NCBI RefSeq assembly: GCF_016026235.1
Contig: NZ_CP065613.1
Direction: 5' to 3' (one strand)
From: Escherichia coli
Lineage (GTDB): Bacteria; Pseudomonadota; Gammaproteobacteria; Enterobacterales; Enterobacteriaceae
Length of the DNA: 64,000 nt
A program made the position numbers and the translations under genes. This document shows, piece after piece, positions 25,102-25,725 of this stretch. A model generated the notes under the pieces. It was given only the letters and a program-made list of their open reading frames with translations, ran no database searches and was not told where the DNA came from. Numbering within the stretch: position 1 is the stretch's first letter; each line of letters opens with the position of its first letter.

Positions 25102-25725
25102 CTATGCGGCCTCGGAAGGAAGTCCAATCATCTTATTCAAATCTTCTACCCGTAAAGCAGGAAGTGCTGTACTTGCTTTATCTGCTTCTTTTGGTAGCAA
25201 TTCTTTGCTTTCAGGCCAAACTTCAATAAGTCGCTTAACTGTTGTGACTGAGTTCAAAGCAGCCCATACATTTGATTCGATATCCTTTTTCCTGGCTTTA
25301 AGTTTTTGTTGCAATGCGCAGATTTCATCAAACCTTTTTGTTATTTCGTGTTCTGCGCTAAACATGCATTTATCTCTGGTCGGAGTAGGGAGCAATATAT
25401 CTTCGCCGTTGCCGTCTTTCCCATATGAATACCATCCAACCCTTCTGCCAGATACAGTCAGATAAATTGAAGTAGAACGAACATCGCATGAGTAAAATGA
25501 ACATCCCATCTTTTCAAGTTCTTCACTTATAGCTACCAACTTGGATGATAACTGATCCACTTCCTCAGTTTTCTTCTTCCCGCCAAACGCAACAACTCTG
25601 GCGTCAAGTGCAAGCTGGTTCTTTAGCTTTGTTACTTCTTCAAGTTCAGTGAACACCCCGGACTTAATTAAAGCGTTGCGTGCTATTACTTCTTTTATTC
25701 TCGTTGTTAAGCGGATTGATGACAT
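25102..25725 (-). CDS. Hypothetical protein in the PL operon directly downstream of N (lambda ea10/ral/sieB position)
   Basis: 207 aa from ATG 25725 with GAGAGGAA upstream; same strand as N and cIII; no family recognised. Confidence 0.5.
   Translation of the reverse strand: MSSIRLTTRIKEVIARNALIKSGVFTELEEVTKLKNQLALDARVVAFGGKKKTEEVDQLSSKLVAISEELEKMGCSFYSCDVRSTSIYLTVSGRRVGWYSYGKDGNGEDILLPTPTRDKCMFSAEHEITKRFDEICALQQKLKARKKDIESNVWAALNSVTTVKRLIEVWPESKELLPKEADKASTALPALRVEDLNKMIGLPSEAA

Follow-up and report, generated by a model that had tools for sequence, protein, structure and literature searches.

In phage lambda, the slot between N and cIII holds sieB on the established map. Superinfection-exclusion (Sie) proteins are typically membrane proteins, and the lambda protein Ral is much smaller than the protein considered here, which is encoded in the N-cIII slot of a lambdoid prophage of Escherichia coli and belongs to the Nmad5 proteins.

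The Nmad5 family owes its name to the thymidine-hypermodification clusters of certain phages. Its Pfam entry, PF18757, is entitled 'Nucleotide modification associated domain 5'. In Pseudomonas phages PAE1 and SN1/M6 and in cyanophage Pam3, the gene order aGPT-Pplase1, Nmad5, thymidylate-synthase-like gene is conserved. No biochemical activity has been reported for any Nmad5 member. The 5-NedU pathway of M6 has been rebuilt in vitro from kinase, aGPT-Pplase2, rSAM and PLP enzymes, Nmad5 being left out (PMC8989533).

The only published experiments on Nmad5 that were found concern the Dhillonvirus homologue. Mutants of the Dhillonviruses SMS22 and SMA8 that escape the defence system Tmn carry the nmad5 changes K296E and K216E, respectively, and reversion of the K-to-E change restores sensitivity to Tmn (PMC11846954). 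Deletion of nmad5 does not lead to escape and leaves the phage viable, while the wild-type gene resisted cloning and appeared to be toxic (PMC11846954). The authors read the escape mutations as a gain of function and call the protein a DNA-modification enzyme (PMC11846954), a wording that has the family name as its sole basis. The early T2 protein RIIB is reported to activate Tmn by direct binding (PMC13001434), so that Tmn senses early phage proteins directly. In Mu-like Pseudomonas phages, the anti-CRISPR operons occupy a slot flanked by the Mu G homologue and the protease/scaffold gene (PMC3993853).

The gene between N and cIII

The window analysed here is a stretch of 64,000 nucleotides from E. 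coli (contig NZ_CP065613.1). The element around the gene is a lambdoid prophage, whose apparent structural genes extend to the window end. The features referred to below are as follows.

18297..19367, integrase of the prophage
22880..24989, minus strand, kil, gam, bet and exo, which follow cIII, from ORF translations and the RefSeq names of homologues
24856..24996, minus strand, cIII, from the ORF and the RefSeq names in homologous loci (97% identical)
24997..25101, minus strand, 105-bp spacer between the Nmad5 gene and cIII, a variable slot in relatives
25094..25113, minus strand, candidate weak terminator-like hairpin overlapping the stop codon, from a consensus scan
25102..25725, minus strand, Nmad5-family gene with its ATG at 25725 (207 aa, 23 kDa, pI 8.6)
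25733..25738, minus strand, Shine-Dalgarno sequence GAGAGG, 7 nt 5' of the ATG, read from the sequence
25787..26170, minus strand, N-type antitermination protein of 127 aa, from the ORF and the RefSeq name 'antitermination protein' at 97% identical loci
26680..26687, minus strand, boxA-like CGCTCTTA, putative nutL, 5' of N and the sole exact match in the window
28077..28814, CI-like repressor of the prophage
32032..34938, primase/helicase of the prophage (968 aa)

Judged by its sequence, the gene at 25102..25725 is almost certainly an intact member of the Nmad5 phage family. In hmmscan, residues 4-203 of the product match positions 1-206 of the 206 in PF18757 (i-Evalue 4.4e-71, 239.6 bits), and the protein also matches PHROG 1965 (E 1.6e-82), which is itself without assigned function. 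The allele of E. coli VL40 is 100% identical and bears the RefSeq name 'Nmad5 family putative nucleotide modification protein'. The first-pass annotation had called the gene unrecognised, which the full-length match to PF18757, the match to PHROG 1965 and the existing RefSeq name contradict; the gene is already catalogued, as an ordinary member of a known family and not as a new kind of element. The same annotation had seen no likeness to Ral, SieB or Ea10, and here it agrees with the Pfam scan, in which none appeared. A search of NCBIfam with the window protein gave no match, the PADLOC defence-system models gave no family at E<=1, and sequence searches of the PDB, whether they started from the protein alone or from a profile of 46 sequences, returned nothing below E 0.4. 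Homology to a characterised protein of another function was also looked for, and no characterised homologue was found.

The family is large. Searched with a profile, 1.84 billion representative proteins yielded 2,294 clusters (50% identity) at E<=1e-3, of which 705 reach E<=1e-10, and nearly all of the best 150 clusters are stand-alone proteins of 190-220 aa. In a second search, with precomputed Pfam annotation, PF18757 occurred alone in 114 of 114 matches, and no domain fusion was present among the listed matches, all of which are stand-alone proteins of about 200 aa.

How long is the protein? The mechanical ORF list runs to a TTG at 25785, which gives 227 aa. The homologues all begin at an ATG, with M-S-S-I-R-L-T, and a Shine-Dalgarno sequence is located upstream of this codon in the window, so 207 aa is the right length. 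The reality of the ORF, as first proposed, is borne out by the Pfam match, by the number of clusters and by a median dN/dS of 0.32 (49 distinct lambdoid alleles). The good ribosome-binding site that had been noted is the GAGAGG listed above, and the flanking ORFs confirm the location directly 3' of N, in the N-cIII slot.

The stop codon of N and the ATG of the Nmad5 gene are 61 bp apart, and a consensus scan found no promoter-like site in this gap. The boxA-like CGCTCTTA, on the expected strand and side, fits, by analogy with lambda, antiterminated pL transcription of N and the Nmad5 gene. With a boxA 5' of N and no promoter-like site in the gap, the gene would most simply be a delayed-early gene of the pL operon. 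For terminator-like hairpins the consensus scan found 3 sites against 2.3 expected. From the putative nutL boxA, the leader extends over about 510 nt (26171..26687) to the start codon of N at 26170; the corresponding leader in lambda is much shorter. A promoter-like site at 26447..26419 falls within the N leader and may not be pL. On the other side of the gene, a comparison of 80 related loci, together with RefSeq annotation, shows 0-2 extra small ORFs in the spacer slot, such as one for a DUF2528 protein; the ORFs in the spacers of these relatives (loci L008-L087) encode a DUF2528 protein or others of 80-320 aa.

Several other genes of the prophage are worth recording. Two antirepressor (Ant)-like genes (19648..20271 and 20593..21375, both on the minus strand; PHROG 377 and 1726) are located close to that end of the early-left operon where the integrase lies. 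Two ORFs on the minus strand, 27698..28039 and 26975..27508, lie between the CI-like repressor and the boxA 5' of N; lambda carries rexAB in its repressor-to-N slot. For the 113-aa protein encoded here, PADLOC gives the candidate defence family PDC-S43 (E 7e-42), and the 177-aa protein matches PHROG 2602 (no assigned function) and gave no match in PADLOC or NCBIfam; the two may be a lysogen-expressed defence pair. The early-right region contains an IS110-family transposase gene (30063..31259, minus strand; NCBIfam NF033542, 231.8 bits where the cut-off is 140). It is flanked by the cro side of the immunity region and by the primase/helicase gene, and may have disrupted or separated early-right genes.

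Distribution and contexts of Nmad5 genes

The gene is present in 210 of 5,426 complete E. coli genomes (about 4%). At >=90% nucleotide identity it occurs in 77 GenBank phage records, almost always as a 'hypothetical protein'; the carriers include Stx1a and Stx2a phages, HK542, HK244, mEp235 and Kapi1. In the literature on mEp235, HK542 and HK244 nothing was found about the Nmad5 gene.

In lambdoid loci the gene always lies between N (N and Nun in mEp235) and cIII. A comparison of 80 IMG/VR loci with a gene copy at least 92% identical distinguished at least 27 flank types upstream and at least 17 downstream (800 bp on each side). The recombination module downstream differs too: Red in the window, Rad52/SSB/exo/Abc2 in mEp235 and others elsewhere. 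As both the flanks and the recombination modules vary, the gene is a mosaic accessory module in its own right. The prophage of VL40 (NZ_CM177011, locus L097, 6894..8192) carries the 100% identical allele in another background, beside a different N allele, and illustrates the horizontal exchange of the Nmad5 module. It also holds rexA and a gene in the rexB position (annotated 'ExbB'), and it has been scrambled by IS600/IS2 insertions.

An insertion of about 1.3 kb after nucleotide ~105 splits the gene of Stx2a phages, where it is thus dispensable. In Stx2_716 (LC616058), nucleotides 1-107 and 104-624 of the gene lie about 1.3 kb apart (89..195 and 1505..2025 of the locus), which suggests an insertion of insertion-sequence size with a short target duplication. 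All Stx2a records listed show the same partial match, to residues 34-207, in two places per record.

The viral-contig locus search gave only near-identical lambdoid copies, and the more distant contexts come from GenBank phages and nine contigs. Several of these are replication or nucleotide modules. In the N4-like Shigella phage B2, a ThyX-Nmad5 pair adjoins the DNA polymerase gene; ECO1230-10 has a helicase-Nmad5-...-primase order; in a Vibrio phage, Nmad5 directly precedes the replication initiator; and in metagenomic contigs it adjoins Rv2179c-like or RNase_T exonucleases, with PolA. In temperate elements its neighbourhood includes the repressor, an MT-A70 methylase, SSB and the integrase. 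One metagenomic contig (L098, 5001..9789, from SRR7122373) has PolA upstream of Nmad5; directly downstream come an exonuclease of the RNase_T type, a gene resembling that for adenylosuccinate synthase, dGTP_diPhyd_N, a pyrophosphohydrolase for dATP/dGTP and an HD protein. This looks like a cluster of the 2-aminoadenine (Z-base) type and hence like a second kind of base-replacement system beside Nmad5. Contig L001 likewise pairs Nmad5 with dGTP_diPhyd_N.

A further context is the head module. Three lineages (Dhillonvirus and the contigs L100 and L101) have the gene flanked by portal/MuF on one side and scaffold/capsid genes on the other, and in Dhillonvirus it is the lone opposite-strand gene within this module. 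Nmad5 relatives are present in Dhillonvirus, in N4-like phages and in other groups known as lytic.

How much of the hypermodification context is shared by the lambdoid phages? By organism counts, hypermodifying lineages make up roughly one fifth of the phage records with a homologue. In tblastn, homologues from these phages align only over the C-terminal ~90 residues. Sixteen partner proteins from other phages (a panel of aGPT-Pplases, kinase, PLP, rSAM, ThyA-like, ThyX, PurZ-like, MazZ-/DatZ-like, MT-A70 and DEDD exonuclease proteins) found no homologue in the 64-kb window (tblastn, all E>0.1), and no modification partner gene is present in the 12.6 kb around the gene in mEp235. To our knowledge, such modification genes have not been described in lambdoid phages. 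As such a context is not a criterion of sequence, the family membership stands, but the functional label does not transfer.

Conserved residues and predicted fold

In an alignment of 148 sequences, the positions kept in at least 80% are R5, L6, I14, A18, G23, R43, G48, G49, G93, V153, T162, L166, W170, P171, E172, E175, L176, P178, L188, P189, L196, N197, G201, L202 and P203. The window protein carries all family motifs: the N-terminal R-L, R43, G48-G49, G93, T162 and W-P-E, and further E-L-L-P, L-P, L-N and G-L-P, all of them kept at 80-100% in this alignment. Gly, Pro, Leu, Trp and Ala make up most of the invariant or nearly invariant positions; among polar residues only R5, R43, T162, E172, E175 and N197 are conserved, and no catalytic residue set is recognisable among the conserved positions. 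The pI of family members ranges from 5 to 9.8, which argues both against a DNA mimic and against a uniformly basic DNA binder. No membrane or hydrophobic segment is present in the window protein (maximum Kyte-Doolittle(19) value 0.61). The C-terminal motif was compared by eye with beta-clamp-binding, HhH and SAP/HeH motifs, with no convincing match.

The AF2 model (18-sequence alignment; mean pLDDT 83.8, pTM 0.68) begins with a short strand, after which come three long helices (8-22, 24-47 and 50-72). A beta-hairpin (86-100), accompanied by further short strands, precedes another long helix (127-158), and the C-terminal part consists of small helices (163-182 and 193-200), between which residues 183-192 are of low confidence. 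A tandem fusion of two copies (30-residue GS linker, 20 paired sequences) was modelled with a pTM of 0.63 and extra strands at 75-81 in both copies, which hints at a homodimer. In Foldseek (AFDB50 and BFVD) every match at E<1e-3 is to a phage protein that either is annotated as Nmad5 or has no name, and TM-scores reach 0.90. Homology to prefoldin/Skp-type coiled-coil and beta-hairpin proteins was considered and rejected; the scores are typical of any long helical hairpin, and there is no sequence similarity.

The first-pass annotation had pointed to a coiled-coil-like N-terminal part and a Cys-containing central region. The former agrees with the predicted helices at 8-72. The cysteines are present (75, 80, 120 and 136) but carry no significance, as none is conserved across the family, and for the same reason a metal site at these residues was dropped. 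Taken from the model and the alignment, the fold and the conserved residues look non-catalytic, although an enzyme of a new type, without a known catalytic motif, may also be compatible with them.

Where do the Tmn-escape substitutions map? The BF9 homologue (254 aa) matches Nmad5 at E 1.6e-54, and its C-terminal 100 residues are 33% identical to the window protein. K216 of BF9 aligns with R165 of the window protein, in an alignment that spans the C-terminal half only and with the numbering of SMA8 assumed to be that of BF9. This position, occupied by K or R in 74% of family members, adjoins the invariant W-P-E. A single charge reversal beside the most conserved motif thus alters the outcome with a defence system.

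Possible roles of the lambdoid protein

What could such a protein do in a lambdoid phage? The favoured reading, to which a probability of about 0.4 is given, is a non-enzymatic, host-directed adaptor that aids phage DNA metabolism or counters host defence. The protein would be soluble, helical and possibly dimeric, and would be made early in lytic growth. A nearly invariant C-terminal module, T162-x-K-[KR]-L-x-x-W-P-E-x-x-E-L-L-P followed by L-P-x-x-x-V-x-x-L-N-x-x-I-G-L-P, would bind DNA or a host protein conserved across bacteria. This binding would help phage DNA replication or recombination or would blunt a host defence, a job of the same general kind as those of the operon neighbours Gam and Kil and of lambda Ral in the same slot. 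Nmad5 occurs in phages whose replication and recombination machineries are unrelated, both in lambdoid phages and in N4-like and YuA-like phages and PolA-bearing metagenomic contigs, which encode their own polymerases; any partner shared by them all must be either DNA itself or a host protein of broad conservation. Nmad5 is also found repeatedly in slots that serve genes of host interaction or counter-defence. A role in restriction alleviation or counter-defence, as the position in the operon had first suggested, is compatible with these observations. However, the conservation across distant phages and the moderate dN/dS are unlike the rapid turnover of many anti-defence genes.

Replication and nucleotide-metabolism neighbourhoods (DNA polymerase, DEDD exonucleases, ThyX/ThyA-like enzymes and base-replacement clusters) dominate the non-lambdoid contexts, and a housekeeping role in DNA metabolism fits equally well. 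It is accordingly nearly as likely as the host-directed adaptor, if tentative in itself, that Nmad5 is an accessory of the phage's own replication, recombination or nucleotide supply, for instance a replisome organiser or mediator, with no target in the host or its defences. The homologues of B2, ECO1230-10, the exonuclease/PolA contigs and the Vibrio phage do lie within modules of this kind, and the lambdoid copies lie upstream of recombination genes. However, the flanking machineries are mutually unrelated (Red, Rad52/SSB, PolA, N4-type), and lambdoid phages depend on the host replisome, which leaves no common phage-encoded partner. The location in the head module in three lineages and the dispensable, sporadic nature of the gene among lambdoid phages also speak against an accessory of this type.

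It is improbable that the protein, be it an enzyme or a targeting subunit, makes modified nucleotides or installs them in phage DNA. The gene order kept in YuA/M6-like phages and Pam3, the putative 2-aminoadenine-type cluster beside one homologue and the MT-A70 methylase two genes away in a temperate element would all suit such a role, but no partner gene is found in the window or in the inspected part of mEp235, the M6 pathway was rebuilt in vitro without Nmad5, the fold and conserved residues look non-catalytic, and most of the homologue-bearing phage records are from lineages other than the hypermodifying ones. As no partner modification enzyme is present, we infer, with low confidence, that Nmad5 does not modify nucleotides in this phage. 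A SieB-like gene with which the prophage would exclude superinfecting phages or defend its host, the other function that the position had suggested, is likewise improbable, even though the N-cIII slot is that of sieB, the gene behaves as a mosaic, moron-like module and a homologue seemed toxic when its cloning was attempted. The protein is predicted to be soluble, with no transmembrane or hydrophobic segment, and has no PADLOC match; no promoter-like site of its own lies upstream, so the gene is probably silent in the lysogen; and its relatives reside in Dhillonvirus, N4-like and YuA-like phages, where a gene that protects a lysogen makes little sense.

The host-directed adaptor can be taken further, to a reading that is doubtful at present. 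Nmad5 proteins as a whole may be misnamed and may be very widespread non-enzymatic phage effectors that bind a conserved protein of host DNA transactions or host immunity; the copy in lambdoid phages would then be a counter-defence factor of the Ral/Gam kind. If so, the K-to-E site of Tmn escape (R165 here) would mark the partner-binding surface.

In the lambdoid context, the RefSeq label 'putative nucleotide modification protein' is probably misleading, since the window contains no modification machinery. About 4% of complete E. coli genomes have prophages that bear this label, Stx-converting phages among them. The value of the locus is thus a caution and a lead: a large, dispensable family, without an assigned biochemical function, has one published link to Tmn escape. 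The small lambdoid phages mEp235 and HK542 offer a simple system for finding the role of Nmad5.

Compared with the Nmad5 proteins of M6, YuA, PAE1, SN1 and Pam3, the window protein belongs to the same family and shares the predicted fold, and the motifs R5, R43, GG48-49, G93, T162, WPE170-172, ELLP175-178 and LN196-197 are common to both. The window gene stands alone in a lambdoid pL operon, and the window contains no homologue of aGPT-Pplase, 5-hmdU kinase or thymidylate synthase. The Dhillonvirus protein is of the same Pfam family, and both genes are dispensable; it is longer (254-334 aa) and its N-terminal half is divergent. The head-module slot of Nmad5 in L100, L101 and Dhillonvirus resembles the anti-CRISPR slot of Mu-like phages, an analogy of position only. 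Unlike the anti-CRISPR operons, Nmad5 has no aca-type regulator nearby and no similarity in sequence or fold to any Acr. With Ral, SieB and Ea10 of lambda, the Nmad5 gene has in common the early leftward slot and an accessory, replaceable character, its product being predicted to be soluble where Sie proteins are typically membrane-bound.
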